In this document: positions 10,141 through 59,263 of the stretch, piece by piece
Layout of the letters: each line of letters opens with the position of its first letter
Numbering within the stretch: position 1 is the stretch's first letter
Translations under genes and position numbers: made by a program
Notes under the pieces: generated by a model
The model's input: the letters and a program-made list of their open reading frames with translations, nothing else
Told to the model about the DNA's origin: nothing
Database searches by the model: none
Assembly (NCBI GenBank): GCA_035221665.1
Contig: CM069147.1
Coordinates: forward strand, 25,420,001 to 25,484,000
DNA length: 64,000 bases
Direction of reading: 5' to 3'
Source: Okamejei kenojei
Taxonomy: Eukaryota

Positions 10141-10440
10141 GATAAACGCTGGGAAGATACTGTCACTGGATCTGGACGTATGCGTTTTCATACTTCTGTA
10201 CCTCTTGCCTGGTGGGTGTGGGGAGAAGATGGAGTGTCCGGGTTGAAACCCTACCTTGATTATACCGGTGACTTTGCGAGTCAGCGTGAAATGTAGATGG
10301 AGTTAATGGCGGGGAGATGGTTTGCGTGACGGTCTGGGCTGGTCCACAATTCTCTGCTATTTCTTGCGGTCTTGGATGGAGCTATTCCCACACCACCTGT
10401 GACACATCCCGATAAAATGCTTTATACCATGCATCTGTTC
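10141..10440 (-). mobile_element. Rex1/Babar-type LINE fragment, right part
   Basis: Collinear with 63510-63800. Confidence 0.7.
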
Positions 10441-10903
10441 AGTTTTCATAAAGTATGATGAGTACAGACAGGATAGATATTCAGGGTCCTTATATTAATG
10501 TTGTGGAGAAATGTTTAACTGATGCGCGGATGCTTAAGATGAGGAGTGGGAAAGCGTGGGATAATTATGGACACAGAATGTAGTTACTACCATGGACGAG
10601 CTGGCAAGGAGTTGGTGGAGGCAGACAAAAATACAGCCTTTAACTTGCATTTCCCCCGGCACTCTGATAGGAAAAAATGTAGAGAAATGATCTTATGCGG
10701 TGAAAGGCATTATTGTGCCGAACAACTCTTAACAAGGGTAACATTCATCAGAGTAGATCATCTCTCATAAAAATCCCCTGCTCACTGCGCATTGTCTTGT
10801 AAATGATAATGTATATGTACGATCTGTGACACAATGTTAATCAGGTTTATGTAATTGAAATATCGTTGGCTTTAGAGTGAATGGACGCTTGCTGATTTCA
10901 CAG

Positions 10904-11026
10904 CTATTTAAAAATCCTGATTCCTGCATATTCTGTTTCGTTGTTCTTCACCGTTCTTGGATGTTTCAGAGAAGTGGTGAGATCCAGAGTTGTATAGGTC
11001 AGTTTATTTTCTGACACTTCTTGGAC
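10904..11026 (-). CDS. Gene A exon 7, terminal cytoplasmic exon (LTYTTL ITIM, TEYAGI ITSM, stop)
   Basis: Acceptor atttttcgatag; encodes VQEVSENKLTYTTLDL...NETEYAGIRIFK-TAG. Confidence 0.87.
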   Translation of the reverse strand, partial: VQEVSENKLTYTTLDLTTSLKHPRTVKNNETEYAGIRIFK

Positions 11027-14000
11027 CTATCGAAAAATAATCAGAGATCATGAGCTGCTGATTCCCCTATATGGGCGACGTACAGGAATTTACGTTGCAG
11101 TACACATCCGCTTTTACCTTACCTGGCCATAGGTAGTTTGTTCTTCGTGACGTCTGTTTTTCGTAGTTTTCTTCAGTCCGCTGAAATTAATATCTGCGTA
11201 CGTCGGATACTGAGGGAACATTTATTTGAAAGGAAATAAACTCCGCATTTACAAAGAACTGCGAAGACGAGCAAACGCAAAACAAGCGCGTGGAAGCTGG
11301 GTATGCACGACCAGTCATTCCATTGCTATATATGGTTACTTCCCTATGATGAGATTACTAAAAAAAAAGCAAACCGAAACAACTCGTATCTAATTGGTTT
11401 GAGTTCCCTGAATAATTTGTGAACTATTAGCCAAATCGTGAAACCAATAGGCAGAAAACTGACCGGAAGTTTGTTGGATGATGACTTCGAGGACAATATA
11501 TAGTTGACGCGATTTCTGGGCTCAGGTATATTAGCAGATTTTCCGTAATATATCAGAAAGAGCTGCCGCGCAAAAAATATGACGTGTGAATTTTGAATTG
11601 GAACAGGATGGGCCTCGGTTATGATGCTTGACGGAGTGAATAATCCGCTCGACACAGACAGAGTAGACATAAACTGTTTAGGATAACTCGAAGGTTACGC
11701 AAATGCACGTCGCTGACGGTCATGGACTATATCATAAGAATACGGAAGGATAAGGAAAATTGCAAACGAGGCACATACGGAGTTCCACGAAAAGTGGATC
11801 CATCATGTTGTCCAATCAATGTGATTATAATTACGGACGTCCATTTGCAGAACATGATACAACAGGTTATATCCTGTTATTCCATCAAAACAATTACCTG
11901 TTTTTCGGAGTGGTGGGTTCTGGCCTCAATATTTTCTGGTGCTAGTAGAGAACATAATAAAACGACCAAATTTTATCATCAGCGTGTCACAACCTGCCTG
12001 CCAATAGTCAGTTAATAATCGAGTTGTGACCAGATTCGTTCGGCTGCAGAAATTGGCCATAGCGGTCATGCTATTCTTGTTATTTAAACACATCCTCTCC
12101 TCGTTAGTCCTAATGCTAAGGAAAAACACACGGAACAGTTGAAAACCTCTTGTTTGCTTCCGCTTTCCTGTGATAACCATATAACCATATAACCATATAA
12201 CAATTACAGCACGGAAACAGGCCCTCTCGGCCCTTCCAGTCCGTGCGACCATTTGTTTTCCCCTAGTCCCATCTACCTGCACTCAGACCATACCCCTCCA
12301 TTCCATTCACGTCCATATACCTATCCACTTTACTCTTAAATGTTAAAATCGATCCTGCCTCCACCACTTCTGCTGGAAGCTGATTCCACACAGCCACCAC
12401 CCTCTGAGTAAAGAAGTTCCCCCTCACGTTACCCCGAAACCTCTGTCCCTTAATTCTCATGTCATGCCCTCTTGTTTGAATCTTCCCTACCCTCAATGGG
12501 AAAAAACGTATCCACGTCAACTCTGTCTATCCCTTTCATCATTTTAAAGACCTCAATCTAGTCCCCCCTTAACCTTCTGCGCTCCAAAGAAGAAAGACCT
12601 AACTTGTTCAACCTTTCTCTGTAACATAGTTGCTGGAACCCTGGCAACATTCTAGTAAATCTCCTCTGTACTCTCTCTATTTTGTTGACATCCTTCTATA
12701 ACTAGGCGACCAAAATTGTACACCATACTCCAGAATTGGTCTTACCAATGCCTTGTACAATTTTAACATTACTTCCCTACTCCTATATTCAATGCTCTGA
12801 TTTATAAAGGCCAGCACACCAAAGGCTTTCTTTACCACCCTATCTACATGCGATTCCACCTTCAGGGAACTATGCACAGTTATTTCTAGATCCCTCTGTT
12901 CTACAGCATTCCTCAATTCCCTACCATTTACCATGTACGTCCTATTTTGATTTGTCCTGCCAAGATGCAGCACTTCACACTTATCAGCATTAAACTCCAT
13001 CTGCCATCTTTCAGCCCACTTTTCCAAATGGCCCAAATCTCTCTGTAGACTTTGAAAATCTACTTCATTATCCACAACACCACCTATCTTAGTATCATCT
13101 GCATACTTACTTATCCAATTTTCCACCCCGTCATCCAGATCATTGATGTACATGACAAACAACAGTGGACCCAACACAGATCCCTGAGGCACCCCACTGG
13201 TCACCGGCTTCCAACCTGACAAACAGCCATCCACCATTACTCTCTGACATCTCCCATTCAGCCACTGTTGAATCCATCTTGCTACTCCACCATTAACACC
13301 CAAAGATTGAACCTTCTTAACCAACCTTCTATGGGGAACCTTGTCAAAGGCCTTACTAAAATCCATATAGACAACATCCACTGCTTTACCCTCATCAATT
13401 TCCCTATTTAACCGCCCCTATTTAAACAACCCGACCTTTGCAGCATTTCACCTAGTGTTTAAAGGCGCCTTATTTTAGAACAAACAGCTTAAACCGGTTA
13501 AAATGTTGTTTCCCACAGAATGCTGCGGCCGGAGAAAAGGTGCTGTGGTTAAAATCGTTATCTCAGCACTCCTCGTTACTCCTTCAATTGAACATTGCTA
13601 TTTTCGGAAAAAACACGAAATGTTGTAGTAATTCAGCGGGTTAGGCAGCATCTACGGGGGACATCAATAGCCGAAATTCCGGGTCGGGACCCTTCTTCAC
13701 ATGTGACTCGACCCCAAAAGTCCCCTATCCATTGTCTCCCCAGATGCTGCCAAACCGCCGAGTTACTCCAGCACTGTGTCGCTAATTTCGTACAAAGATC
13801 AAGACGCTTCTTACCTTCAGTACTGTGTAATATGCACCGCCTGGCATAAAATACCAGCGCTGGAATAATTAACACGCATATAGCAAATCCACCCGCCAGA
13901 AAGTAGACGGGTTTAACGCTTGTTCCTAAGGGGAAAATAAAATGTCAATATTATAACTTTTCAGAGGTTATCTTCATTAAATAATCAGAACACACGAACC

Positions 14001-17000: not shown

Positions 17001-20000
17001 TTTAACAGGCTTTGGGTTCCTTGAGAAGGGCAATCACCACCTTGTGCTCAACAGCGACACGTCTAGTAGAGCTGTTGTTCCACAGCAACAGAGATACAGG
17101 TTCAATTCTAACTTGGGCGTTGGGCCCTGTCTATGTGGAGTTTGCACTCTCTCCCTGTAATCATGTGGGTTTCCTCATGGTGCTCCAGGTTTCTCCCACA
17201 TCTCAAAGACGTGTGGATTTGTGCGGCAGCAATCGAGACTGCAGGATAGGTTATAGGGGATTGGAGTAGAATTGGGCCATTCGGCCATCCGCCATTCCAT
17301 CGTGGCTGATCTTTCTCTCTCTCCTAACCCCACGGTCTTGCCTTCTGCCCATAACCTCTGGCAACTGTACTAATCAAGAATCTATATCTCTGCCTAAAAA
17401 ATATCAACTGACGGCCTCCAAAGCCTTCTTTTAATTATTTAATTCTGAGGCTATGACCTCTAGTCCTAGACTCTCCCGCTAATGGAAACATCCTCTCCTC
17501 GTGCACTCAATCCAAGCCTTTCGCTATTCTGTATGTTTCAATGAGGTCCCGCCTCATTCTTCTAAACTTCAGCGATTACAGGCCTACTGCCGACAAACGC
17601 TCATCATAATTTAACCTACTGATTCCTGGGATAATTCTTGTAAACATCTTCCATGCTACTACCCTTTAATTTCAAGGAATCGTGCTCTGGATTTTAAGCG
17701 ACCATCGGATCGCCTGACTGCTGTTCTCCCTCTACTTTCTTTATCGCAAAAGCATTATTTAACCACAAACCATCTTCACTCTCCAGTATCCGCGAACACC
17801 TATTTCCCTTCTCACCGTACCTTCACATTCAGCGATAGATATTATAATGTTTGCCCTTTCAAAACTTCCATTAACACCATCCAGGGACCTGCGTACTCCC
17901 GCCAGAGTTCACCTTTTCAGATTTCAATTACAACAGTATATTTGGTGAGGTCTATTTTAGTTGGGAAACACCAAATGCAAACGAGAGCTGCGGCAACACA
18001 GTGTCGCAGCTGTAGAGCTGCTGTATTACAGCGCGAGAGACACAGCTTTGATCCTAACAATGAATGCTATCCGTGTGGAATGTGTACGTTCTCAATGTGA
18101 CTGCGTTTGTGTTCTTCGGGTGATACGGTCTCCTCCCACATCCCACAAAGTATGGATGTGCAGGCGTGTAGGCTAATTGGCTTCTGTAAGTTGTCGCCAG
18201 TGTGCAGGGAGTGAATGAAAAAATGTTCTAACAGAGAACTATATACCGGTGATCGATGATCAGTGTGGACTTGGTGTGCTGAAGGCTCCGTTTCCACGCG
18301 GTATCTCTAAAACTAAAACAGTCAATATGAAGATGTTAACTCAATTTCCAATTGTACCTAGAATCGTAATCCATCTTACATTTTCAATTTATTTTCTTTA
18401 CTTCTTGTCCTACCTCAACGAAGTCACAAGAATGCGTTATGGAATCTCTTCCAACTGCATTTACTGAAACCTTAGACCTGAGCAATGAATTCACCAATTT
18501 CAGAAAATTGGATGAAAACTGGCAGTTTTTATGAATAAAAATAATGGGATAAATTCCAGATGCTGGCAGCACAAAATTAACAAAACATAGAAATGTCTGG
18601 GAGCACAGACCAGATCAGACAGTTCATAGGGACGCCCATCATCCGGAATTATCGCTACTCCGTATTATGTGTATGACCGTTCGCACATTTTCTTATTTTT
18701 CCTTTATTTTCATTTTTCTCTACTGTTTGAATACAGATCAGCAACGATGAAAAAATAAATTATCTGAGTTAATGACCGCGTATGTTATTAAATTACCCGT
18801 GGCCTCTGTCCTCAGGTTTATTGGTTTGGTCAACTTGTTTTCATCCCTTCATTACCATCCCTCTCCAACGTTACAGCAATAAGACTGCAAATTATTTTAC
18901 ATTTAAACGATGTCCTTATTATGCAGGGAAATAGCTTTATAGGTATTTGCTGAGACGAGTCGAGGGTGTTCTGTGTGCTGTCCTGGTCATCCTGCTATAC
19001 GTAGCATATCATTATGTTGGAAAAGGTGCAGAAAGGATTCACCAAGGTATTACCTGGAATTAATGGCTGGAGTTATCCGGTGATGCTGAGCAGGTAGTGA
19101 CCTCTTCCCATGAGGCATAGGAGGTTTACCTAATTCAAGTATATAAAATTATGATGGGCGCATAGAAAGTGAATGCTTACAGTCGTTTTCTCCATGGTTA
19201 TGGATTCTCAACAGGGAAGGTTAAGAGGGGCCCAAGGGGCAATTTTTTTCTGAGAAAGCTACAGTAGTGTATACAATTGTGATTTTCAAAGGAAATTTGG
19301 ATAGATATGTGGATAGGAGCAATTTGGAGGGGACATTGGCAAATGCGGAGAAATGGGTCTAGTCCAGAATGCCAACTTGCTTGACGCGGACAGGGCGGGC
19401 CGAAGGGCCTTGCTTCCATGCTGTAGAGCTCTATATGATCAGAGATAAACAGCGAGTTCCAGCGTCCGCTATTATACAAACATGCAAACACAACTGTCAT
19501 CTTTGCGCGACGTCTCTTACTAACCAGTATCTAATTTCGTAGACTGATCCTACCTTTCCATTTCAACAAAGGCATGCTCACCATCTCCATTCAAACACTT
19601 ACAAACTGTCTGGCGTAAATTTTGGGTGGGAATTCATGAAATGCCGTGACATAAAAAACAGTGATATATCTCAGGACGTTATTGAAGGGATAAACCTCAT
19701 ACCGATTCCAGGAAATCTGTGAGTTTCAATGGTCGGAAACAGGAGGGTGACGTGAACCACGTGGCAACTATAAACAGATCGGCTATCTACTGCATGCAGG
19801 AAGCTGGAAGCAAGATATAATCCCTCGTCGTTCCGTATTTTAGTGGTATTTATTCCAGAAGTGATTTCGTGGTCATCTTTATACCAGGTAAGTTCACAGT
19901 CCTCCGGGAAAAACGGAGCAGTTGTACAGTTTAGGGCCAGGGAAGGAGTGTTCATCTGTTTAATCTTCAAAGGCGTCGGTGACACTGCAAACAATTTAAG

Positions 20001-23000: not shown

Positions 23001-25772
23001 CCTCAAAAACTCAGCCAACAGCAGGATCCCACAAAACCTTGCCACACTGTAATTACACTCCTGCCATCGAGAAGAAGGTATACGCGTTTGAAAACCATAA
23101 TCTTCATGATCAGAACGAGCTTTTTCACAACAACCATCAGGCTATTAGATACTACAAACACCAACTAAACCGAATACAACCCGTCTTTATTGTACTCGGA
23201 ACTTTGGAACATTTGTTTTTGTTTTGCACTAATATAGTTTTCTATTGAACTTATTTGGTTTTGTTTGTTGAGTACTGTGCCACAGACCCGTTATGCTGCT
23301 GCGACTAAGAACTTCATTGTTCTGTTTCTGTACATTGGTAATTAATCACCATTAACTGTTTGGGATAGATTTCAACACTCAGATGTCTGCAGCAAAAATA
23401 TGTAACTCACGTGAATCATAATAGATGAAAATGTTGAAGCAAACATTCAATCACTCACCTAGAGGGATACTCGGGTCCATTTGAACCTCAACACCCTCAA
23501 CTCACTCTATTTCTAAAATAATCGATCTCGCTATTTGTCTCTTCCAGTGCGTGGATATCCTCACTCAACCCCATCATTTTGCACCTGTCATATACTTACT
23601 TAATAAAAACATAGAAGCATAGAAAATAGGTGCAGGAGTAGACCATTCGGCCCTTCGAGCCGCCATTCAATATGATCATGGCTGATCATCCAACTCAGTA
23701 TCCTGTACCTGCCTTCTCTCCATACCCCCTGATCCCTTTAGCCACAAGGGCCACATCTAACTCCCTCTTAAATTATGTGGCAGATAATTCCACAGACTCA
23801 CCACTCTGCGTGAAAAATGTTTTCATTTTTGTTTTAGATATTTTTAAATAGGCAAAATAGGCAGGGAATGGAAGGATATGTCTCGCAAAGAGCGGATATT
23901 AATTTACCTTTGCACCATATTCGGCACTGGTATTGTGGGCCGAAGGGTCTATTCCTGTTATATGATTCGTTGTTGAATTCTATTTTGAGCTATTCTATTT
24001 TCTATTATAAGTTCGAAATTGATGGGATGCTTTAGGTATTTGTCGAGTTCGCAATACATGTCACGGTACTTAAACTGGCCAAGGTATAGTAGCGTGTCTA
24101 TGTGTATTCAGTAGTTGTTGATGTGGGATTGAAATAGTGCGCTGTGCGGAGGGAAGAGCGTACTCAGTTGGGTGAAGTTTTCTGGCATATTTCCACCCAG
24201 AAATCGAGTATGACGCTGACGTATAACTATCATTCAGACTGAAGCTTCTGTTCTCCCACTCGACGCTCTGCTGAGTTCCAATGAAACTCAACGTAAAATG
24301 AGGGATAACGTTTTGATTAATATTCACAATTTGCAATTTAATCATTTGAATTCTGGTACTACTTTTATCTCCTTTGTTTACATATTTTGTGACTTGTTGC
24401 ATTATTCTCAGATTTCCCCCCGTTTATAATTTAATGTTTTTGTTTGTCTTCCATCCATACTAATGCGCCACCACGCACACTACCTACTCTTCCTTGCTAT
24501 ACCTCTGAAATTATTTAACAATTTTCACCATGAATTTTTGTTACTTCCGCTATAACGTTCTAGGCGGAAACTAATTTCTGTATTCGCAGATATGTTGTGA
24601 CTCGTATTTTATCATTCATTTTCTTTGAAACTATGAATTCCTAAAATCATGGTAGAATAATCGTACACAAGATTGCGGTTAGAATATATCACGCTCACTA
24701 TTCACCAAATGTTTCTTCTAACAACATACATTTTGTTAACATTTACTCGTTGGACTAGAAATAACTACATAAATGGTCAAGTATGATGATTCTTCAACAA
24801 ATAGATCAATTCGTGATTCCCCCAAGAATGCTCCATCATCTGGATATCACCGGTCTAGACTGGAGCGCAATGTTTTTTTTGACTAAACGACTGCAGCTAC
24901 AATACCCGCTAACATATGACGGTTTCCATTTCATTGACTACCATCTGCAATCTTAATCTATACTCCTTTCGCAGGGTGCAGTTGAGGGGCCGCCAAGAAA
25001 ATTAACCCTACACATAAAAATGATAACTAAATGATATGAAATTAAAGAATAATGATTGTCCAAAGATCTCATGGTCCAACAATCACGAGAACTCAATTAC
25101 TTAAATCGTTAGAGCAAAACATCTAGTACATACTGAGAAAGGTCCGTGTATTGCTACTTGATAACTCTGTAGCCCACCATATTTATTTTTGTTTTGTGAT
25201 TCGAAACATCAAGTAAGACTCACCGTGAACAGTAATCCTCGTGCCATTGCTTTTGGAACTCTTTCCTTTCTCGCCTCTCACACTGCAATAATAGAACCCG
25301 GAGTCACGGAAGCTCACGTCCAACAGATGTAATTCGGCAGATCCCTTCCGAACATTGTTCTTTGTCATCCTCCTGTTTGCGAGGGGATCCAAAGTCTCTT
25401 CTTGACCGTCTCTCTTCCAGTATACATCCACCAGTGCATTCTGACCGAAGATTGGGAAAGTACAGTATAGGGATACATTTTCACCTTTCACTTTCGTTAC
25501 CTTATCGGGAATCTGACGCACCCTGAACGAGGAGGCCCGGACAGTAACTGTCAGAATTAAAAACAAACGTTAAACATGTGAAATGACAATGAACGGATTG
25601 ATAAAAATCCAAATAGCTGAAAAAGCTCGACCGAAAAGTAAGAGTTGTACATCTTATACTTTTCGTGGATTGACCTTTTCCCTATTATTTTCATTTAATA
25701 GAGAGAAATATATTAACCTGTGTAACTCATGCACAGGATCGAGAGACACAGCAGCACGGCAAACATAAACAT
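10904..25772 (-). CDS. Gene A: type I membrane IgSF receptor (leader-VJ-C1-TM-ITIM/ITSM tail), SIRP-alpha-like predicted inhibitory receptor; 7 exons, 341 aa
   Basis: Exons 25772-25718, 25547-25224, 19984-19703, 13925-13815, 11941-11898, 11209-11123 and 11026-10904 join at GT-AG sites with intron phases 1,1,1,1,0,0. They give one open frame of 1026 nt ending in TAG. Confidence 0.88.
11123..11209 (-). CDS. Gene A exon 6, cytoplasmic (YPTYADINF...QTTYGQ)
   Basis: Acceptor gttccctcag, donor CAG|gtaagg; 87 nt, phase 0-0; two tyrosine motifs. Confidence 0.85.
11898..11941 (-). CDS. Gene A exon 5, cytoplasmic linker (APENIEARTHHSEKQ)
   Basis: Acceptor ttctctactag, donor CAG|gtaatt; phase 1->0, as needed to link the TM exon to exon 6. 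Confidence 0.72.
12173..13406 (-). mobile_element. CR1 LINE, 5'-truncated, in gene A intron 4
   Basis: RT ORF 12677-13381 (DFSKAFDKV, GVPQGSVLGP, YADD); (ataaccat)n tail at 12173-12200. Confidence 0.92.
13815..13925 (-). CDS. Gene A exon 4, uncharged transmembrane segment (VYFLAGGFAICVLIIPALVFYA-RR)
   Basis: Acceptor ttattttccccttag, donor G|gtaaga; hydrophobic run followed by basic stop-transfer residues; 111 nt, phase 1-1. Confidence 0.85.
14020..14400 (-). mobile_element. CR1 RT fragment
   Basis: FDEVPH...HGIKG...YVNDLD remnants. Confidence 0.7.
15680..16470 (+). mobile_element. Penelope-like element 3' part (GIY-YIG endonuclease plus pLTR with hammerhead-like core)
   Basis: ORF 15690-16130: CTSFNLIYCI...IYIGETKRRL.DRF.EH...PV..HFN. 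ctgaagaagggtctcgacccgaaa at 16380. Confidence 0.88.
17990..18320 (+). mobile_element. tRNA-derived HE1-like V-SINE (other copies near 17040, 21840, 26350-26650, 31360-31550, 54560-54850, 58585-58720)
   Basis: tRNA-like head (gtgtcgcagctgtagagctgctg...gatcct), conserved central ctcccacatcccacaaag...gtaggctaattggc, CR1-derived tail. Confidence 0.7.
19703..19984 (-). CDS. Gene A exon 3, Ig C1-set domain
   Basis: LNC..APFFP....TWYK...GLY...S.L...YSCHVVH; acceptor tgtttgcag, donor G|gtatga; 282 nt, phase 1-1. Confidence 0.92.
22240..23340 (+). mobile_element. Degenerate Rex1/Babar-type LINE (RT and 3' end) in gene A intron 2
   Basis: PQGCVL, KFADYTTV, IVDFRR and SVLTGCITAWF remnants. Confidence 0.75.
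25224..25547 (-). CDS. Gene A exon 2, Ig V-set domain with J-like G strand
   Basis: LYC...VYW...DSGFYYC...SNGTRITVH; acceptor ttctgacag, donor G|gtgagt; 324 nt, phase 1-1. Confidence 0.93.
25718..25772 (-). CDS. Gene A exon 1, signal peptide MFMFAVLLCLSILCMSYT
   Basis: ATG, hydrophobic leader, phase-1 donor G|gttaat, 170-nt intron to the V exon. Confidence 0.8.
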
Positions 25773-33774: not shown

Positions 33775-34255
33775 TTTAGAGGTTCAAGCTCAGTTAAAGC
33801 TTTTCTTACAGAATCTAAATGTTGTACAACATAAATTCTGTACAATAGGTTTAACACCGTCGGTACGTGCAGACCATCTAGTATTGGACATTCCATACAG
33901 AGGAACAAGATGATGTCGCATTAGAATTTCACACCTTTGTGGACTGTTGCTTCTTCTTCTTGCTTATGGCGTGCACAGCCTAAAGTTGTACGACAATTTG
34001 TTCTATTTGATCTTATTTGATTGTGCACGCCAGGTTGATTGTATTCGTCGAAACACGGCAGACCACGTGAAGGTTGCAATCTCCCACCCCTGGACTGCTG
34101 CTGAACATTTTGCACATTCGTTGAATTGTTCCAAAGTAAGTAACTGCTTCCTTGCATGACTCGGCGCAGTCAACACCCACAAGGTTTAGTGTATGATTTC
34201 CACAGCTAGAGAAAATACAGTTTGAATTACGTTCTCATAGAACTGCGTGTACACC
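33775..34255 (-). pseudogene. hAT (ZMYM1-like) transposase remnant, C-terminal to the DIRS insertion
   Basis: Reads NGVHAVL*ERNSNCIFSSCGNHTLNLVGVDCAESCKEAVTYFG...FSSSPQR...NTRWSAR (CxxH and TRW motifs). Interrupted by a ~140-bp insert (33950-34090) with a tggactg(t/c)tgct duplication. Confidence 0.8.
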
Positions 34256-45800: not shown

Positions 45801-48325
45801 CGCGCTACAGTCACGAAAGGAGTGACGTGCTTCATCGTCCGACAATCCAACCTTCAAAAACGGTTCACGCCCTGTGATCACTTGCTGCAGAATGTTGACC
45901 GTAAGCATACATTGATGCAAACAGGATGAAAATTGTTTTGTTTTCATCCCATGCCCTGGCGGGAGAAAGGTTTCGGGCATTATTCTTAAATCCAGTGGCT
46001 TACTGAAAATAGTCAATATGAGTCTACAGGATGCACGAGGGTATTATTGTACCATTAACCGCCGGGGCACTTTAGTTGGCAACGGTACCGGGACGACTTT
46101 AGTTGTGATGGGTAGATATATTTAAATGTGTTAGGAATGCGATTTCGCGACTGTGATATTACCCCGCAAGTAAGGTCGTTGTTCAGATTTGAATCATTTA
46201 TGCAGCCATATGAATATCATAAGTATTTCAAATTGTAAATCATACCATAGATGGTCTGCATGCTGAAAGGTATAAAGAAGATGTATCGGAAGATGTATCG
46301 GAAGTTTATTTCCAAAGTACAGCATAACACATTTCATTGTAAAATTGTAGTGGCCGTTGTGACTACGGAAAAGACATGTGCAACTATCGTAGTGGGTGAC
46401 CGCCTATGATATACCAGTTCCCCTGTCATTTCCCCCTCTATGAAATGACACCACAGTACAACTAACTTTTCCACTATGTCCATAACCCAGATGATATCTG
46501 TTATTCACAGGATATCTACTTCGTTTAGTTAAGCCATATGCCTTCTAAAGAGGATTTGAGAGCCCCGTTGTGACATTGGGGATGAATGAATGCGGAGATC
46601 CGATCGCGTTATCAATTTTTTCTTGTTCATTCTAGTCGGCGGCGTGAATGTAATTGGAAAAAAACACACATTCATATTGAGGAATGACTCATTTCCATCA
46701 TATTTCAATTGAAACATTTGCATGTGGTTAAAGGGAAGAATTTGTCCTACTGTTTAATGTGTTTCATCAATCAATTAACTTGATCAATCAACTGACCTGA
46801 GGGGAAATTTCAGATTCGGAAGCTCACAGCAATCCAAGAAAAGGAAACGCGGTATTTAATCATTTAATATGTCTGCAATATGTCGAGGCAATGCGTTTCC
46901 GTGGAATATTTAATTGAAAAATACGGCAGCCAAACGTGTCACTATCCCGAGTATTTTGCAGTCACTAGCATGCATTTCACAAAACGGATTGGCAGAAGCA
47001 GAAGTACTTGCTGATTTCTATTAAATTGCTTACACCCATTACAATCAACGGTATCTTCTGTCAACCTGACATCAGTTAACACAAAAACGAATGGTGATTA
47101 AGCGGCCCTTTCCGAACAATTCAGTTGTCATCTTCTGTAGTAGTATTTATTTTGAAATGTAAGAATAAATTCCAAGAATTTATGAATCAATCAAAAATAA
47201 AACCCAAGATGATCCCGCCATAAAAACACGCATTTTTGTGCGATTCGTATTGTGGCAATTTGAGAATTAGAATTACACCGCCGTCCTCGGCTTCTGAGTT
47301 ACAAATAACTTTTATAGCTCTGAAATGTTAGGATCATATTCTTTCAACAACCGGAACATTCCGTATTCAACATTCGCAGCGTCAGTGGAGAGATAATGAA
47401 AATAAAAAAGCTTCAGGTCTAATTCTCAATAGCAAAATGACAAAGAGGGAAAGGAGCTTAGTTTCAAGTTGCAGAAAATTTGGGACGGCTAGAACCGCAA
47501 AGGGGACATTTCGAATAGGTCTGGAGCGCATAAATGCTGGAAAACATGCGACAGAAATGCAGGGAATATTCAGTGAATTTGACAGTCTGATTTGAGAATT
47601 AACAATATAGAGCAGACCTCTTCTGCTGCGGACAAGGAAGTCGAAGACTACAGTGCAGTCTTGGATCATGGGATAAAAGGTATTATTTCATGTCAGCAGA
47701 ATGGCGGATTTTGCCGCAGAATGATAGGGTCGGTAGGATGTCCTTGCAGAACAAATGTGACTAAACTAAACTAACAGTTTTGCTTTCTCCAGTGCTCCAG
47801 TTGTTGTCTCAGTTCTGACTATAGGCGCTGTCTGCTCTGCTCAATCGAATATACTAATTTCAACAAAAGAGGGCAGCTATTTAAAATCTAGTCGCATCGG
47901 AATTGCTTTTCACGGAAGGAGCTGAATCTCCTCTCCCTTATAAAGGTAGATTATTGAAAACATTTAATCGAATTACCGATATTTGATTTGAAAGATCAGG
48001 GGATGGAATGCTATGGGGAAATGGCATAGAAGGAGAATTGGAGGCAAGGGTGGATTAAGTACTTACTGAATGGCGAGGCAGCCTTGAGTGTTCAAATGGC
48101 ATATTCCCTGTTCCTAACGTTTAAGTTGTGCGGAAGATAGATACAAATAACTGGCGTAAGTCAGCGGGACAAGCAGCATCTCTGGAGAGAAGGGAAGGGT
48201 GACACTTCAAGGCGAGACCTTCAGACAGTTTTACTTCTTCAAACTAGCCATACCTTGGGGAGATTTCGCAGTGGAGCGGGCAAAATGTGTCAAAAAAGTA
48301 CTACAGATTATGGTTTAAATCGAAG

Positions 48326-49175: not shown

Positions 49176-49227
49176 ATGATGACACGTGTCTTTCTGCAAT
49201 TGATTGTTCTTCACGTCAGCTATGCCG
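49176..49227 (+). CDS. Gene B exon 1, signal peptide MMTRVFLQLIVLHVSYA
   Basis: ATG, hydrophobic core, phase-1 donor G|gtatat; 160-nt intron, similar to gene A. Confidence 0.75.
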
Positions 49228-52200
49228 GTATATTTCACTCTTACTATAGACATTCCGACCGAAACTTAATTATCAATTTATAAGTTTGCTGACCCTTTAT
49301 TTATTTTTTCCTCGTTACGCGCAATTTTCAATTAATTTGGTCATTACCTCGGTTTAACCCTAAATTTGATTTTTCTTTTCCCGACAGCTGGTGCCAATGG
49401 TCCGTTGGACGTAACACAAGTTCCAGAAGCTGTTTTGATGCGGGGTGACTCGGCAGTGCTTTACTGCATTTATCCAATCTTCTCAGACAACAGGCCGTTC
49501 AAAGTGCATTGGTGGAGAGATGGGGATAATAGATTCCTGGATGAAAGTGCAGATAAAAGAATCCAGTTTTATTTCCTGAGACGGGGAAGCGCCGTCTTAC
49601 GGCTCGGGGACGTGACAGCGAAGGACGCCGGGCTCTATTTTTGTAGCTTGACACGTACCAAAGTTGTTAACGGGTCTGGTACAAAGCTGGTAGTTTACGG
49701 TGAGTTTCGGGGAGAGGGGTAAGCCAGATCGGTTAACTTCACCAACTCAAAGCGATAAGCTCAATCACGTTGAAGAAAATGCACGTTATTCATCATCTGT
49801 GTCATTTGATATAATATGATTTGTGTGATGGGTTAGATAGTGTTTTTGACGCAATTACCAAAAAAATCCGAATAGACTGATTGAGAGACTAAATGACGCC
49901 TTCCACATCTTCTGCTTGACAGAATTATAAAACCTTTCGCGTATATTTTAGAATTGCTTCAACGCAGAGGGAATGGTGTTACTGAAACCAACGACACGCG
50001 GTACAGGTAGTTGAGATTGAAAATATGTAGGGTTCCGAATGTGGTACTGATCAAGGAGATTATTTTTTTTAATTGATTTATTTGCAGCTGCCATCTTTTT
50101 TATCTAAAGTGTAAGGAATTGCAAGTGTAAGGAATTACAGAATCATAGAATCATACAACACAACAACTGGCCCGTTCTGCCCACGTTGTCTCTGCCGATG
50201 GTGCTACTTGTATATGTTGATGCTGTTTGCCTGCATTAGGCCCATATCCTTCTATAACTCTTCTGCGCAATTACTGGTTTAACGCAATTTAAATGTTATT
50301 ATTGTACTGCACCCTCTCCGGTGGTAGATGTTCCAGGTATGCAAACCTTCCTCTTCTCCTTTACATGTTTCCCCTTTCACCTAAAAACCCTGCCACATAG
50401 TTCTTAATTCCACTATTCTGGGGAAAAGACCCCGTCTATGCTATGAGTGGCCCCGATATTTAAAACAAAAACGTTTATTAATTTACTCCTCTGCTTCCTT
50501 TCTACCATTGAGAATAAACGCAGTTTACCAAATGTCTCGTTATAAAAAGGCCCTCTATTTCAGTCAACATTCTGGTGAACCTCTTTTGCACTTGCTCAAT
50601 AGGTACGATGTTTAACCGTAGTATAAGTTTGGTCACACTTCTAATTGTCCCGGATTACTTGAAATTATATAGGTGCCGTGAAGCGAGTCAATCATTGAGG
50701 AACTCAAAATTAAAGATCTATATTGTTACATTTAGCCTGCAGAAGGGTCACGACCCGAAATGTCACCTATCCCTTTTATCCAGAGATGCCTTCTGCGCGC
50801 TGAGTTACTCCAGCTTTTAGCCAGGTTTAACCCAGCATCTACAGTTCCTTCCTACACGTTGTTGTATTAACGTGTATTCTCCGCTCACGTTCCAAGCGAT
50901 GGAAATGGCATTAAGATCATATAGATATTGAAAACGGTTTGTTTATAAATGGTGCAAATGTACTTGTAGTTTGCATCTCAACCCTACGTTTTGGGCGGCT
51001 TACGCAGACGCTGATCACTGTTTGAGCTGTAGTAAATGGAAAGGGTTGGTGACTTTTCCATGAATGAATGTCATTGATATCGTGTCAGAGGACTTAACAT
51101 ACCATCCAGATTCTTAAGGGAATGTGTTGGTCTGGGATAATTGTTCTCGAAGTAATGCAACTACTTTCTTCTGTGCTTAACGGAATTCTAAATAGCAAGC
51201 TGTTCCCTCTGGTCCAACTTTACAATATGTTTTCACACAAGGACAAACATTCTTCTGACCTTCTAACTCAAACATATTTTTGACCTCAAGTTACTGCTGA
51301 ATAAATCTTCTGCTCGATTTAGTTATTTCAACAACGATAAAGAATATATTTGTAAAATGTTGATACTCGAGCTATTATTAAGGGTTACATTGTGTACAGT
51401 TATATCACCAAATTATAATAAAAATCGTGAAGACGTTTAGAAAATTAAAGTTAATGCTTTGGCTCTTAATGTCTGTGCATGGAACAGAACGCATAATTTA
51501 CTTGCGCTGCGAGTAGAAACAGAAAGTATATGATATTTATGATGTAAGGTAACCGTTGTATAATAGACACAAACTGTAAAATCAGCGCATACAATAAAGA
51601 GGTTTAAAAGGAATTAAATTAGACGTTAGTTTATGCCACAAGGAACAATATTAGCAGTTTTAAATCGTTTTAAGTGCTTTAAATCGCTACAACTAGCCTG
51701 AAAAGGTTCAATGAAGACCATTTTCGAGGCCACAATGACATTTGATTCGTCACGAAAAGCACCGGACCGGTAACATTTAAAAATCGTTTTATTTTCCAGA
51801 CCCTCCAACTCCTCTGAGCTTGACCACCGTGCTGCCAGAGAACGCACCAGTTACTCTAATTCTCGTTTGTAAAACAGCCACGTTCTTTCCCCTTGATCTG
51901 AATATTACTTGGTACAAAAATGGGTCCGATATGAAACATGAAATGGAGCCAAACAAAACACAGACAACATCAGGACTCTACGAGGCTTGGAGTTACCTGA
52001 CGGAGACCGAACATGTGCAGAGCGGGACAGTTTATACCTGCCAGGTATCTCATATTTCTCTTCCAAATCCAACCAATATCAGCTACACTGTCTACAGCCG
52101 AGGTAAGAACAACGATACGTTTTCGGTATAATTTGGCCACTTAGAACCCTGATTACCTCATAAACAGGCGCAGATAATAAAGAACAATATTGTTCGTTTA

Positions 52201-55200
52201 GCACATATAGGACCGTTGACATTTTGTATAGCACAATAATGGGCAATGATAGGACAAACTTTCATATTTGTGTGTGTCTCGTGAAAGTTCATAGAAACTT
52301 TTCCATCTTGCATTATGGCTAGGGTTAAACCACATACGAAGCACCTGATCATCACGAGCGAAACAAACGAATACCTAAAATTTACTGCAAGGAGTTTCAG
52401 GTCTGAAACTGGCATTCGATTGTTTATGAAAGTACATTATGGTTCCAAAACTCCACGCTATGGTAAGATCAGAAGAACAGGAATTATTGGACTTATATGT
52501 TCTGAGAGACAGGGTCTGCATGCATTTGGGGAGCCGTGGATTGATCATGGAGAGTCAAATTTTAGTTGTGCGTGGAAATTCGCGTCTTACGAAATTGAGT
52601 AAGGGGGTTGAAGCGGTGACCATAGGCATTGATCAGGAATTGCGATGCTATGCCTATTTAGACTTCAGCGAGTAATTTGATAAGGTATTGGTTGACAAAT
52701 CTGAATGGTTGGTTCGCATTGGATCCAGGGAATTGGATACCAAAATTGTCTTGAGGCAGATGGTGGTGGTAGAGGATTAATTTTATGGCTAAAGGTCTCG
52801 GATGAGTAGTATGCCACAGGGATCGGTGTTGGGTGCACTGTCTGTTTTTTTTATACTAACGATTTGGATGTGCATGCAAGCATAGTTTGCGGGTAGCACA
52901 AATAAATTGGGGTTTGGTGGACTGTGAAGTAGTTTATCAAAAATCACAACTGCATCTTGGTCAAGTCGGCCAAATCGGCTGAGGACTGACAATTGCAGTG
53001 TTGGAGGCAGATACGGTAGCGGCGTATAAGAAGGTTTTCGACAGGCGCATGGAAGTGCGGGGAATAGACGGATATAGATCATTTACAGGCAGATGAAATC
53101 AGTTTAACTTCGCATCGTGATGTGCACAAACATTGCGGGCCGAATGTAAGCCAGTGTTACACTGTTGTATGTTTTATGTTCAGCCTCCTCTACGCTAACG
53201 CAAAAAGACCTAGCAAATCCAACCCCCACCCAATAACTGAAACCATTTTGACCAGATTATATCCTCGTAATCGCCTTTGCACTGTAAATGCAGTGTTGAT
53301 TTTTCGTAAAACTAAATAGGACAGACATAAAATATACGGCAAAGCCATGGTGGGTGGCGTTGCCAGAGAGCATGAACAGTGAAGCCTAGGTATAGATGAA
53401 CAGGTATTTGGTTCCTAGAATCATAGAATCATAGAAAATAGGTGCAGGAGTAGGCCATTCGGCCCTTCGAGCCTGCACCGTCATTCAATATGATCATGGT
53501 TGATCAGCCAACTCAGTATCCTGTAGCTGACTTCTCTCCATACCCCCTGATCCCTTTAGCCACAAGGGCCACATCTAGCTCCCTCTTAAATATAGCCAAT
53601 GAACTGGCCTCAACTACCTTCTGTGGCAGAGAATTCCACAGACTCACCGCTCTCTGTGTGAAAAAAGATCTTCTCATCTCAGTCCTAAAATACTTCCCCC
53701 TTATCCTTAAACTGTGACCCCTTGTTCTGGAGTTCCCCAACATCGGGAACAATCTTCCTGCATCTAGCCTGTCCAACCCCTTAAGAATTTTATAAGCCTC
53801 TATAAGATTCCCCCCCTCAATCTCGTAAATTCGACAACAGCAACAGCGACAACAGCTAAATTCCAGCGAGTACAAGCCGAGTCTATCCAGTCTTTCTTCA
53901 TATGGAAGTCGATAGTTGTGACGAAGAAGGTTTACAGAACATTTGTCTTCATCAGTCGGTATATCGAGTGCATGAAACACACTACAAGTGTACTAAACGT
54001 GAATAATCTACATTTGTGTACACTTCTTGTCACCCTGCCGTGGAAGGGTATAAACAGTACAAAGGCGATTACGAGGATATAATCAGATCAGAATGTTTTT
54101 AGTGATAGGGTGAGGGTTGGATTGGCTGGGCCTTGTTTCCCTTGTGTAGAGGAGGCTGAACATAAAACATACAAAGTACAATGACCGCACCTATGCATCA
54201 TAAAGATATTAAGATCAACCTCATGTTTCTAAAAGCTTCTTAAATATCACTATTGTACCTTTGTATCTTTGTATCTTTCTACACTACCACGTCTATCAGC
54301 ACGCTTCAGACACCGACCACGCTCTGTGCTATGCACTTGCTCGGCATATCTCATTTAAACTTTGCCCCTCCAACGTAAACCCACGTCCTCTAGTTTTTAA
54401 CCTTTACACCATGAGAAAAGGGATCTGACTGGTAGTGCCACAATTACACGTACTTCCATCCGGAATCCATTCAGCCTCCATCGTTCGGGGGGCGACAACC
54501 TCTGTTCTAACCTCTCCTTATGACCATTACCCTCTAATCCAGAGAGCATCGTGGTTAAATGCAGCAATGTGGCGCAGCTGGCAGAGGTGCGGCATCATAA
54601 CGCTGGAAACCCTGATTCAATCCTGACCTCGGGTGCTGTTTGCATGGAGGTTGCACTTTCTCCCAATGAGCGCGTGGGCTTCGTTCCGGTGCAGCGGTTT
54701 CCTCCGACATTCCAAAGATGTACAGGTGTATAGATTAATTGGTCTCTGTAAAACTTTCAACAATGTGTAGAGAATGTATGAGAAAATGTGATAATATAGA
54801 ATGTGTAACCAAGTGATCGTTGGTCACCCTTCATACGTTGGTCCGAGTGCATCTAATAACATTAGCAGTCTTCCTGGGTGTCCGTAACTTCGCCCATTTT
54901 GGTGTCGTCTGCAAACATAATCACCAACTCATTTACAATTACATCTACGTCATTCATATAGAAATCACAGACATTGATCCCTGTGGAACTCCAATTGTCA
55001 CAGAACTCCTGCCACAATAACACCTTTCTATCCGAACCCTCTGTCTTCTATGAATAAGCCAGTTCTGAATCCATACGACCAACTAGGACCATCTCACCCT
55101 GAATCCCATGCATCCTAGTTTTCTCGATCAGTCTGACTTGCCTTGGACGTGCTGACCGTCCGTAATTAATCCACTTTCTACCAAATGGCAAGAAAATCTA

Positions 55201-58200
55201 TCCCGAATTATTATCTTCAATAACTTCCCTTTCACTGACGTGAGGCTCATCAACTGTCATTCCTTTGCGTAATTGAAGCAAAACACAGGCATTTAGCGGA
55301 CAGTAGCCAGCCTGTTTCAGTGACAGCGCTCCTGTCAGCACATCTTCAGCACGCGCACCAAAATAATATTATCCCCAAACCAGCCTTGTCTATTTCGCAA
55401 AGCCGTCTACTGTGGAGTTACTAGTTTACCACTCAACGAATTTCGAACATAGCTTAGTGCATGGCCAATAATTATTGATTAGCTAAGGCAATTACGACAA
55501 GAAAATTGATCGTATAATAATTTGAAGAGCTGGCTTTGTCTGGCAGGTTCCGCACCTGGGGAGTCATGAATACCGTCAAATGAATTCAGGTTATATTTTA
55601 GAAATCTCCGTTTTAACGCGGACGGTTCATGTATCAGGATCACACACTTGCTAAAGTTATTGTCGCCCGTCCGCGTAGGAGCAAGACATAAATGCTAGCA
55701 ATGAGAGGAACACATTGACATAGAAGTCCTACGAACAATAAACCGATGTAAAATGCTTCTTCCATCATGAATGATTGATTTACAATCTTCTTCAGCTGGA
55801 GATGTCAAACAGGACGATTCACCTCGGCATACGAACGCATGTTCGCTTGTGCAAAAGTCACACTTTCTGCATATGGCCTCACCTATCATGCAAATATACT
55901 CCTGCCATATTACGTTAGCTTCGCCCGGCATGTGATTTACTCTTCCCTCAATATGTTTCTCCAGATTTGGACTGGACTTATTCTCCTTTGCACTCAGCAC
56001 CCAGTGAGATTCTTTAAACTTCACAAGGGATTTACTCATTCCTGTCTCACGATTTCTAAACCTGTCGAGGCAGGGGAAGACAACATTCCACAAAGTACTT
56101 TTGCATGTTTTTCATTTATTTACCATTATTCTTGAACTTTATGCTCTCCATAAATTACTTTTTGCACTGGGGCCTTATCTTTCGCTTGCAGATTTCACAC
56201 GACCGGTTATAATTGACATTTGTCAAATGAATTGCGTTACATAATTCCAGGTTCACTTACTTTAGTTGTTCGAATTCAATTTCCAATGAATTCCAATTTA
56301 CTTCCTTGCTAAAAGTAGGCAGCGTCCCCCCATGATTAAACAAATCTACCAGATGGTTTCGATGTAATTGAATTAGAGACATTTGAAAATTTCGTCATGG
56401 TTACATGATCTGCCAGTATCACCATTGAAGTAAAATAACTGCATTAGAAAACCTACGCCACGATTTCGGTAAATATATTGAGGGCATGCTGTTTCATGCC
56501 CGAATAAGGACCATTGGCTGTACATTAGAGACATTTGTACATAACGGAGAAAGTCTAATTATACAATTAATTCCCGTGTGTCTATATATTGGACAAATGT
56601 TTTTTTGATGATGTAACAAGACAATTTGATGAATAATTGATGTAGATGACGTTAATAAGAAGTTTTGGGAAAAGGATTCGACAAAGCTTCAAACAAAATT
56701 TTGGTTATTAAAGTTGTCGCTCATAGGAATAAAGCAAGCAACTAATAAATAAACGAGCTTTCAGGAAGGCATACGAAGGAAAGTGATGGAGAGAGTAATC
56801 AAGAAAAACCGGGGCATTGGACGTTACTCTTCGATTATCCGTGTTCGAAAGGATGGATGTAATAAGGTCCACTAAGTAATCAGTTCACGGTTCTTACAAA
56901 ACTTACAATCAAAGATAAAAGCTGACCGATGTGTGTTGTCATTTGATGCATTTGAAATAAGATCAGGAGACAGGACGGAAATTGCTATGTGCGCATCCTT
57001 TCAATAAAGACGCGCGGTATGCCGTTCCAAATCATTGCATATTTTATGCAATTTAATAGTACTGCTGATAGGTTGTTATTAATGAATTACCTCGAATAAC
57101 AATATTCTGTGTTTGGAGGGGATAATGCGAAGCTGCCGCAATGCCTAACCCCTCCAGGTCGTTCATTGATATTCTGCAGGAAAGACGCATTGTCGACTGT
57201 GCATTTTGACTGTATCGATTTTCAATAGACAATAGGTGCAGGTGTAGACCGTTCGGCCCTTCGATCCAGCACCGCCATTCAATGTGATCATGGCTGATCA
57301 TCCCCAATCAGTACCCCGTTCTTGCCTTCTCCCCACATCCCCTGACTCCGCTATCTTTAAGAGCCCTATCTAGCTCTCTCTTGAAAGTATCCAGAGAACC
57401 GGCCGCCACCGAGGCAGATGGTCACCGTGCCACCCTGAACACAGAGAACATCAATCCACCTTTGGAAGTGAACTACGAAGTCATGCACATCAATATAATG
57501 AAGGGCTCCAAAAGACCGATTTTCTATCGGCACCTTGGATTTAAAAATAAACAAAATATAGGATTATGTATTTCTGTGTTGTACGATACCTCGTTTGTAA
57601 CTGCTCAGTCACAGCGAGCGAAATCTACCTTGGATTATCCTCCCACTCTCTTGAATTTAATTTAAAATATTCCTGTAGATTTGGGATCGTAATTCACAGC
57701 AAAATTCTATTTCCATAATTACATTCCCAATATTCCACGAATATTGCATCGTCAGGAACTCAGCTTTGGGCGCATTAGGGCTGTCATAAACGTAATGACG
57801 GCGGGGAACATTTTCTAGCCTCACTGTATAATCACATGATGAAGAGGAAATAAGTGTTTTTATAATTTCCCATTTCTGGATATTCCACAAGATGGCCTGT
57901 TGTACCGACACAGCTATACATCACTACATTCAATTCAATTCAAATTTAATGTCATTGCACAGATACAAGTATGGGTACAACGAAATGCAGTTTAGTGTCA
58001 ATACGTAGTGATAGCAATGTTTAGATAAATACAGATAAATAAATACAGATGTGGGAACCTATCGACGGGACTCAGAGTTCAGCAGTGCGATGGTGTTATT
58101 GTAGAAGCTACGTGTGACGCTCTGCAACATGGCTATATACACACCTCGAAATATTTAGTATTGGTTGTAAGCAAATATTTGTTTTTTTTCTGCACCTTAA

Positions 58201-58518
58201 TGATGCTTTTATTATATGTCATATGCACACAACTGGGATTGGACAGAAATGGAAAACAGCAACTGCGCTCATGGGTAATGTTCCTATCTGTTTATTTCGC
58301 GTCGAAAAGTCAAATCGATATATTTTTTTAACGACAGAATTACGCTGTTGAACTGATTACCTGTCCTATTATATAATGTTGTACATACGTTAAAACTGAC
58401 CGCTATTTTTTTTAATTATTTACAGTTTTTGTTAATCCACTTCACAACACGATTTTAGGTTGCATAAGAGCAGGATTGATACTGATCATATTCGTTATTT
58501 TCATTGTGATATATAAAG
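49176..58518 (+). CDS. Gene B: type I membrane IgSF receptor (leader-VJ-C1-TM with Arg), NKp30/SIRP-beta-like predicted activating receptor; last exon unresolved
   Basis: Exons 49176-49227, 49388-49699, 51800-52102 and 58426-58518 join in frame through phase-1 GT-AG introns. V and C1 are clearly paralogous to gene A. Confidence 0.85.
49388..49699 (+). CDS. Gene B exon 2, Ig V-set domain with J-like GSGTKLVV
   Basis: LYC...VHW...DAGLYFC...NGSGTKLVVY; acceptor cttttcccgacag, donor G|gtgagt; 312 nt. Confidence 0.93.
51800..52102 (+). CDS. Gene B exon 3, Ig C1-set domain
   Basis: LVCKTATFFPLDLNITWYK...GLYEAWSYL...YTCQVSHISL; acceptor ttattttccag, donor G|gtaaga; 303 nt. Confidence 0.93.
53420..53906 (-). 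mobile_element. CR1 LINE 3' end in gene B intron 3
   Basis: ORF 53513-53980 encodes the CR1 C-terminus; a short acagc-type repeat is inserted near 53830-53856. Confidence 0.85.
58426..58518 (+). CDS. Gene B exon 4, transmembrane segment with arginine (ILGCIRAGLILIIFVIFIVIYK)
   Basis: Strong acceptor ttttaattatttacag, donor G|gtaaga; 93 nt, phase 1-1; not in the ORF track. Confidence 0.82.
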
Positions 58519-59226
58519 GTAAGACTCCGAAGCTATTTGATTTCTAGATTGTTGTAAAATTAACCAATCGGAATTCAGCAATACTTTAGTTTAGTTTAGA
58601 GATACAGCGCGGAAACAAGCCCTTCGGCTCACCGAGTCGGCGCCGAACAGCGATCCCCGCAACCTACACACACTAAGGACAATTTATAATTATATCAAGC
58701 CAATTAACCTACAAACCTGTATACTGGAGAATATACTGGAGGAAATAATGTTTGCGAGTTTTATTGGATCGGCCACAACGCGGTTAGCTGATCTATAAAT
58801 ACGCCCGCCGCATCTCACTAGATGCATGGTTTCTCGGAAGTTAACCTTTGAGCTAGTCACCGATTTGTACATGAAGGATTGATGCTTGGTGTTGTGGGCC
58901 AGGTTGTGGAATAAGGGGTGGAGTCTGAGAAAATGGGTCGGTGATGCAAAAACTCATTTTGCAATTGATTCTGCTTCGATTCGACAACTTGAAGAGGACT
59001 CATATTCTGTAGAGTTTTAACTATTGATATCGTGATATTAGTTTCACTGCATACATGTATACAAACACAAAAGTAATCAGAAAAATATAACGTTTTATAT
59101 GCAGCTAGATGTACTGGCTACTACGCTTTGTCTAGGCCAATAGTGATTTCCCCCCCTCTAAATTACCTCCCTACAGGGACGTGCCGAACATCGAAAGAAA
59201 GTACCGATCAGAAAACGACGGCAAGA

Positions 59227-59263
59227 CGAATGAATGAATGAATGAATGAATGAATGAATGAAT
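59227..59263. repeat. (GAAT)n microsatellite
   Basis: About nine tandem GAAT units, read directly. Confidence 0.95.

Follow-up and report, generated by a model that had tools for sequence, protein, structure and literature searches.

In the stretch of skate DNA analysed here (the window: 64,000 nucleotides of Okamejei kenojei, contig CM069147.1, positions 25,420,001 to 25,484,000), we identified a gene, gene A, predicted to encode an intact receptor of V-C1-transmembrane build. We read gene A as the likely inhibitory partner in a paired receptor system, with a four-tyrosine tail that likely arose by duplication of a two-tyrosine exon within its own family, and we put the probability of this reading at roughly 0.7.

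Gene A is modeled as seven exons on the minus strand, encoding a signal peptide, a V domain, a C1 domain, a transmembrane segment and a tail in an open frame of 341 amino acids. Exon 1 (25718..25772, 55 nt, ending in phase 1) carries the signal peptide, and its N-terminus aligns with the leaders of relatives in full-length BLASTP alignments. Exon 2 (25224..25547) encodes a short VJ-type V-set domain, exon 3 (19703..19984) a single C1-set domain, and exon 4 (13815..13925) a transmembrane segment with no charged residue, a hydropathy of 2.49 and a weak match to the corresponding segment of relatives. Exon 5 (11898..11941, 44 nt, phase 1 to 0) is a cytoplasmic linker that aligns with the linker of relatives and ends in the same Gln. 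The tyrosines lie on exon 6 (11123..11209), a phase 0-0 cassette carrying module 1 (Tyr273, the ITIM-like Tyr276 and the ITSM Tyr299), and on exon 7 (10904..11026), the best conserved, which carries module 2 (the ITIM Tyr312 and the ITSM Tyr334) and the stop codon.

An initial annotation of this DNA had drawn attention to positions 10904-11209, exactly the stretch between the first base of exon 6 (11209) and the stop codon that closes exon 7 (10904). Its four motifs, all on the minus strand, start at 11206 (PTYADINF), 11137 (TTYGQV), 11002 (LTYTTLDL) and 10936 (TEYAGI). The intron between the two exons is 96 nt long and of GT-AG type, and its third codon is an in-frame stop. With the exons spliced in phase 0, the motif tyrosines fall at 276, 299, 312 and 334, and both the order that had been described (ITIM-like, ITSM, ITIM, ITSM) and the spacings of 23, 13 and 22 are exact in the predicted spliced model. 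A fifth tail tyrosine, Tyr273, lies three residues ahead of Tyr276 and had gone unmentioned. The Val of TTYGQV is encoded by exon 7, and an unspliced intron would give Val as well.

Several features speak for a working gene. The model's six introns all have GT-AG ends and keep the phase, the seven exons are free of stops and frameshifts, and the two Ig exons are recognized by Pfam as V-set (E 6.5e-13) and C1-set (E 2.3e-12), with canonical Cys pairs and Trp residues retained in both. When a profile of the transmembrane segment and tail was built from 14 relatives, leaving gene A out, its two best matches in the six-frame translation of the window were exon 7 (E 4.2e-8) and exon 6 (E 2.5e-7), so the match of the tail exons is not a matter of chance. 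The boundaries of these exons are supported by the gene models of P0152 and P0162, which lack just the exon-6 block, and by the remaining relatives, whose linkers end at the same Gln. These observations bear on the suggestion that gene A is a decaying copy, or that its tail exons are unused and the four-tyrosine protein is not made. Such a reading could point to turnover in the cluster, where a third V exon of the same V-C1 family is broken (45889..46113, plus strand; a 3' half with a stop in the C strand, E 1.9e-9) and a neighboring paralogue, gene B, seemingly has no tail exons, and to exon 6 of gene A itself, which starts about eight codons shorter than in relatives. Set against the clean splice sites, the open exons, the retained Ig residues and the exon boundaries common to relatives, we regard it as highly improbable. 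The predicted product is an intact receptor of inhibitory type, and the proposal of an ITIM/ITSM tail on a V-C1-transmembrane receptor is thereby supported for the predicted splicing.

The single C1 domain given to gene A in the initial annotation also held up. The C1 profile matches the window only at 19985 on the minus strand and 51802 on the plus strand, and the idea that gene A hides a second C1 exon was rejected. An alternative transmembrane exon of the activating type was rejected too, the best candidate, at 16892, scoring 4.4 bits (E 1.2). Contigs from three runs of the same species, two of them probably DNA, consist mostly of repeats; the joints shown run from repeat to repeat, the exon bins are almost uncovered, and these contigs have no bearing on splicing.

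The window also contains gene B (49176..59247, plus strand), a paralogue from another subfamily with an ectodomain 38% identical to that of gene A. It comprises a leader (49176-49227), a V exon (49388-49699), a C1 exon (51800-52102), a transmembrane exon with an Arg (58426-58518) and a putative exon from 59177; a search of the window for a tyrosine-module exon belonging to it found none. A first reading of gene B as an activating receptor is now less certain: its orthologues have tyrosine tails, and its transmembrane segment is of the orthologues' type, with one Arg. Among 11 other long open reading frames scanned in the window, three encode reverse transcriptase and eight have no Pfam match.

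Gene A is an ordinary member of a large chondrichthyan multigene family that is already present in public gene databases. HMMER with the V exon, together with two profile searches, returned named matches from 21 species, among them rays, skates, sharks and the chimaera Callorhinchus. Of 102 matches to the C1 profile, the best 69 comprise one unnamed protein and 68 chondrichthyan proteins with names, and the rest (33) are nephrins of arthropods, a further unnamed protein and one eel tapasin-related protein; in the second profile search, 23 of 24 matches are chondrichthyan. SIRP, Ig and bony-vertebrate MHC proteins are absent from the 102 C1-profile matches, a weak blank given that a word-index search with the V exon had missed existing relatives; no bona fide SIRP sequence came from the V-exon searches or the other profile either. 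Over its full length, gene A is 42-49% identical by BLASTP to its ten best relatives, which come from rays and sharks. Within each species, nearly all family matches lie on contigs of one same size (99,651,266 in Heterodontus), which is consistent with a single cluster of family genes per species.

The 116 profile-positive records, which include isoforms, genes A and B and four reptile proteins, comprise 95 of V-C1 build, nine with V only (P0006 and P0017 are V-only family models) and a single V-C1-C1 record. The two C1 copies of that record are 97% identical and, judging by their sequences, are a recent duplication. The automatic NCBI names vary within the family: many members are called 'tyrosine-protein phosphatase non-receptor type substrate 1-like' (that is, SIRP-alpha-like), and others tapasin-like, NCR3LG1-like, Ig-lambda-like or CD276-like. 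Since one family bears all of these names, they carry little weight. In a quick tree of V domains (103 rows, without SIRP, NCR3 or PRARP reference sequences), 83 family rows group together (SH-aLRT 89), and the multi-V receptors of tetrapods and sharks stand apart. Gene A falls within an 18-row elasmobranch subfamily (96), adjoining manta and stingray genes (92), and the partner of gene B is a Leucoraja protein (98), a placement that points to a skate-like genome; the deep forks of this tree are unsure because the alignment has few columns. The literature searched listed no paper on this receptor cluster, and it may well have been described before among shark NCR3-family or VJ-C1 genes.

One of the clearest features of the family is the occurrence of long- and short-tailed siblings with near-identical ectodomains (82-92% identity) and different tails. 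Such pairs are found in Heptranchias (P0160/P0166, 89.8%), Chiloscyllium (P0224/P0026, 88.6%) and Scyliorhinus (P0181/P0182, 92.4%), as well as between Mobula species (P0005/P0168, 91.8%) and between Heptranchias and Heterodontus (P0204/P0027, 81.8%). In the short-tailed siblings the transmembrane segment carries an Arg close to its outer end, and seven records fit a strict form of this pattern. Near-identical ectodomains joined to opposite signaling ends, among clustered paralogues, amount to the general anatomy of paired IgSF receptors. We infer that the family is a paired activating/inhibitory receptor cluster, with the direction of signaling read from sequence.

The tails of the family are built from a repeated unit, an ITIM followed, typically 23 residues on, by an ITSM-like tyrosine. 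Among the 116 records, 29 have one intact two-tyrosine module, 18 have two and one has three. When module 1 was compared with module 2 in the 19 multi-module proteins, the mean score was 43.9, as against 48 for module 2 with itself and 19.3 +/- 0.3 for a control in which the ITIM/ITSM core residues were fixed and the rest shuffled; the module pairs compared are related sequences and not independent trials. Family modules score about 24 against the ITIM+ITSM units of six reptile multi-V receptors, and in P0184 and P0221 the tandem modules are near-identical. The internal duplication suggested by the initial annotation is thus borne out at the level of the family, but exons 6 and 7 of gene A taken alone do not reveal it; shuffling gave as high a score in 1615 of 5000 trials with the protein and in 386 of 2000 with the DNA.

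Conservation of the tyrosines is similarly uneven. In a set of 14 subfamily tails (isoforms and paralogues included, with P0213 added although it is outside the tree and P0019 cut ahead of a duplicated transmembrane segment), Tyr1 is retained in 12, Tyr3 in all 14 and Tyr4 in 11, so the expectation that elasmobranch relatives would keep the tyrosines holds for these three. It fails for Tyr2, which is found in five tails; the manta and stingray relatives have Asn at this position, and all four tyrosines are present in 3 of 14. The Pro at position -2 of the first motif, which lies outside the ITIM consensus, is common to most relatives. On the records compared, four tyrosines are one of several states that a variable cassette can take.

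The initial annotation had taken the four-tyrosine layout as a sign of SIRP-alpha ancestry, and this part of it we do not uphold. The tail is a module present in one to three copies, the same ITIM+ITSM pair also occurs on reptile multi-V receptors of a different architecture, and the V domain, as discussed below, leans elsewhere. In mouse Sirpa, the ITIMs all lie within exon 8 (PMC9071265). The variable module number and this exon arrangement weaken the link, and the four-tyrosine tail of gene A likely goes back to a two-tyrosine exon that duplicated inside the chondrichthyan family, and not to descent from SIRP-alpha.

If gene A acts as an inhibitory receptor, its V domain would bind a cell-surface ligand, and Src-family kinases, which phosphorylate ITIM/ITSM receptors, would be expected to phosphorylate the tail tyrosines. 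Each ITIM+ITSM pair, with its tyrosines 22-23 residues apart, could then dock the tandem SH2 domains of SHP-1/SHP-2 and so damp activation. Module 2 (Tyr312/Tyr334) may be the conserved working core, and module 1 an optional booster on a phase 0-0 cassette open to loss or skipping. The short-tailed siblings, by virtue of their transmembrane Arg, might signal activation through an ITAM adaptor. Activating siblings are the usual answer of paired receptors to pathogens that exploit the inhibitory member.

The origin of the ectodomain is harder to place. In the V domain of gene A, the stretch from the Trp of strand C to the Cys of strand F is 45 residues long. Most family members counted share this length (66 of 89); in SIRP-alpha it is 54 by alignment. 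The V domain and its G strand share one exon, followed by the C1 exon, and the Gly positions of the GxG motif are near-invariant in the family; the J motif lacks its aromatic residue, and in gene A the first Gly is replaced by Ser. In the structural model (pLDDT 87.4, no C'' strand), Foldseek placed NKp30 first (3noi, E 8.4e-9, 27% identity), with NCAM Ig1 and VNARs practically tied. VIA placed NCAM and a VNAR first, and NKp30 16th (Z 13.6 vs 15.0). In the V-profile search, NKp30 was the best-scoring single-domain mammalian chain among the matches listed (42 bits), and the V domain of gene B matches NKp30 end to end (E 0.0011). The V domain of gene A thus leans to NKp30/VNAR rather than to SIRP, by small margins.

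Conceivably, though this is doubtful, the family branched off from NKp30/PRARP, which are VJ receptors that do not rearrange. Its members would then be found on NK-like or T cells and bind ligands of the B7 family or of MHC-like type, and the signaling outlined above would be unchanged. The V-domain matches would accord with such an origin, and the Arg of the short-tailed siblings resembles that of NKp30, whose transmembrane Arg has a similar position. The margins are, however, small, given the Foldseek ties and the VIA rank, and NKp30 has no C1 domain; its PDB chains are 112-126 aa. In PMC11599192, NKp30, PRARP, SIRP, NITR, CD8 and CD79 are grouped as joined-VJ receptors, a grouping that would suit this origin.

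Alternatively, the cluster might be the chondrichthyan SIRP family, with gene A a single-C1 co-orthologue of SIRP-alpha that reads CD47 and restrains phagocytosis, and with the Arg-bearing siblings as equivalents of SIRP-beta. We consider this unlikely, although the C1 domain gives it some footing. Among the best 60 PDB matches of a V-C1 profile, the receptors that bear C1 and are not antibodies are limited to SIRP-alpha and SIRP-gamma, shark UrIg2 aside. SIRP-alpha is the fourth match, and its third domain scores 46.7 bits with this profile, shares the VPPT start and is the best single C1 stretch of the five alignments shown. Its V-C1 stretch, however, reaches 65.1 bits against 68.7 for Ig lambda V-C; with the C1-only profile, Ig lambda C scores 42.6 bits. 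UrIg2 is a top PDB match of the C1 exon. ESM features of the full-length relative P0167 put SIRP-alpha clusters first and third (0.96, 0.95), with CD33, BTLA and CD22 next at 0.94, and those of the V exon alone put a cluster of antigen-receptor fragments first. The many SIRP-alpha-like automatic names would agree with a SIRP family, but the same family carries the tapasin, NCR3LG1, Ig-lambda and CD276 names. The shorter V domain also tells against it: aligned with SIRP-alpha, it has gaps in the C'-C'', D-side and FG stretches, which in SIRP-alpha lie near the CD47-contact loops. SIRP chains did not appear among the best 60 sequence matches of the V and C1 exons or of their profiles, or among the listed matches of four fold searches with V and V-C1 models; these lists are flooded by antibodies, and the missing SIRP chains are therefore no argument against SIRP. 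The V-only isoforms parallel the short form of SIRP-alpha, and the tail introns differ in position from those of mouse Sirpa.

In the V-C1 model of the relative P0005, the match to B7-H6 (Z 16.9, rmsd 4.6, 190 aligned, 19% identity) ties with those to Rst, Neph1, PD-L2 and butyrophilins, and so reflects a shared two-Ig arrangement only. The ectodomain of gene A thus sits among joined-VJ and C1 receptors, with SIRP not singled out.

To our knowledge, which inhibitory receptors serve self/non-self recognition on shark and ray leukocytes is a largely open question. What is apparently a single paired cluster is hidden behind five or more automatic names (SIRP, tapasin, B7-H6, Ig lambda and CD276), and its recognition offers concrete receptors for work on ligands and cell types; it also cautions that a four-tyrosine tail is no marker of SIRP-alpha descent. 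A bolder idea, which we offer as speculation with the odds well against it, is that the cluster serves cartilaginous fish for self-recognition, as a system not yet described: a paired family of non-rearranging VJ-C1 genes, extending from chimaeras to rays, that has kept the build of an antigen-receptor precursor, with an NKp30-like V domain and a SIRP-like C1 domain, and that stands near the common ancestor of both. If this were true, the cluster would supply the 'missing-self' or 'don't-eat-me' inhibitory receptors of sharks and rays, and the number of cassette exons in the tail would set how strongly they inhibit. Non-rearranging VJ-C1 genes are presented as the main candidates for antigen-receptor precursors in PMC10751288 and PMC12227049, whose main texts do not bring up SIRP.

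Gene A shares something with each of several known systems. Like B7-H6 (NCR3LG1) and the B7/butyrophilin proteins, it has a two-Ig ectodomain, and some family members are automatically named NCR3LG1-like; unlike B7-H6 and the butyrophilins, it has a receptor-type inhibitory tail. With PRARP and shark UrIg and UrIg2, which are non-rearranging VJ-C1 genes, it shares a V domain, apparently of VJ type, in a single exon followed by C1, and PRARP also carries ITIM/ITSM motifs. It differs from them in the missing J-motif aromatic residue, in the Ser of its GxG motif and in belonging to a large paired cluster, as against one or two genes. NKp30 (NCR3) leads, or shares the lead, among the matches of the V domain in profile and fold comparisons, and the family resembles it in a GNGT-type G strand and in the transmembrane Arg of the short-tailed siblings. 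Gene A departs from NKp30 in having a C1 domain, an uncharged transmembrane segment, a long inhibitory tyrosine tail and a shorter V domain.

SIRP-alpha, too, is similar in outline. Both combine V and C1 domains with an uncharged transmembrane segment and four tail tyrosines in the order ITIM-ITSM-ITIM-ITSM. Gene A differs from SIRP-alpha in having one C1 domain, not two, and a V domain nine residues shorter from Trp to Cys, and its family in a module number of one to three and in the frequent loss of Tyr2. The charge in the transmembrane segment of SIRP-beta is Lys, unlike the Arg of the putative activating siblings here. According to PMC12324903, mouse Sirpa has eight exons, two of them C1 exons, and SIRP-alpha recruits SHP-1/2; three exons follow the transmembrane exon, and one isoform skips the C1 exons (PMC12324903, PMC9071265). 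The family is like the SIRP family in its three exons after the transmembrane exon, its C1-skipping forms and its short-tailed siblings with a charged transmembrane segment, but the motifs of gene A are spread over exons 6 and 7 and do not all lie in one exon, as those of mouse Sirpa do in exon 8. By analogy, gene A likely works in the manner of SIRP-alpha, through docking of SHP-1/2, and it is probably not a SIRP-alpha orthologue. It may nevertheless be distant kin of SIRP, in which case the tail exons could differ because the SIRP line lost introns.

The plus-strand paralogue of gene A, which we refer to as gene B, differs from its own orthologues in its transmembrane segment. Comparison with the orthologues over 58426-59247 (+), from the transmembrane segment through the next putative exon, places an arginine in that segment at the position they fill with glycine. 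The putative exon, if real, is 44 nt long, matching exon 5 of gene A, and is directly followed by GC rather than GT. The orthologues carry tyrosine tails, in contrast to gene B within the window, where we found no tyrosine-module exon 3' of it. Gene B may be an inhibitory gene becoming an activating one, a truncated gene, or a gene whose tail exons lie beyond the window.

In the predicted model of gene A, the minus-strand V-C1 receptor, intron 6 spans 96 nt (11122-11027, minus strand), and, if it were retained, the predicted protein would stop two residues past the intact first ITSM, leaving a clean single-module tail.

The 3' flank of gene A (10142-10654, +) matches 63509-63996 (+) at 79% identity in the same orientation within the window, and this copy extends up to the window end. 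Another gene-A-like unit may lie just past 64000; part of the duplicated flank may be a common repeat. A third subfamily is represented by a broken V exon (45889-46113, +; best match P0116, E 1e-13), which has a stop in its C strand; a search for its 5' half found nothing. Most of the window outside exons looks like retroelement remains (4400-9600, 12300-13420, and 34000-45700), with reverse transcriptase matches at 6791-7336, 12680-13417, and 40692-41141, and we found no host genes in the window other than members of the gene A/gene B family.

Among the protein records recovered with gene A family sequences, multi-V receptors with one ITIM+ITSM pair (P0020, P0046, P0048, P0052, P0063, P0072, and P0092) form a distinct set; those with a species name come from turtles, a lizard, and a viper. 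Their automatic names are arbitrary (titin-like, pIgR-like, otk-like), and they constitute a separate, apparently poorly annotated reptile receptor family. Five gene A family models (P0006, P0017, P0177, P0011, and P0144) lack C1 and consist of a V domain, transmembrane segment, and tail. The annotation lists P0017 as an isoform of P0015, a V-C1 gene, and this V-only isoform is paralleled by short SIRP-alpha, the Sirpa isoform that skips the C1 exons.
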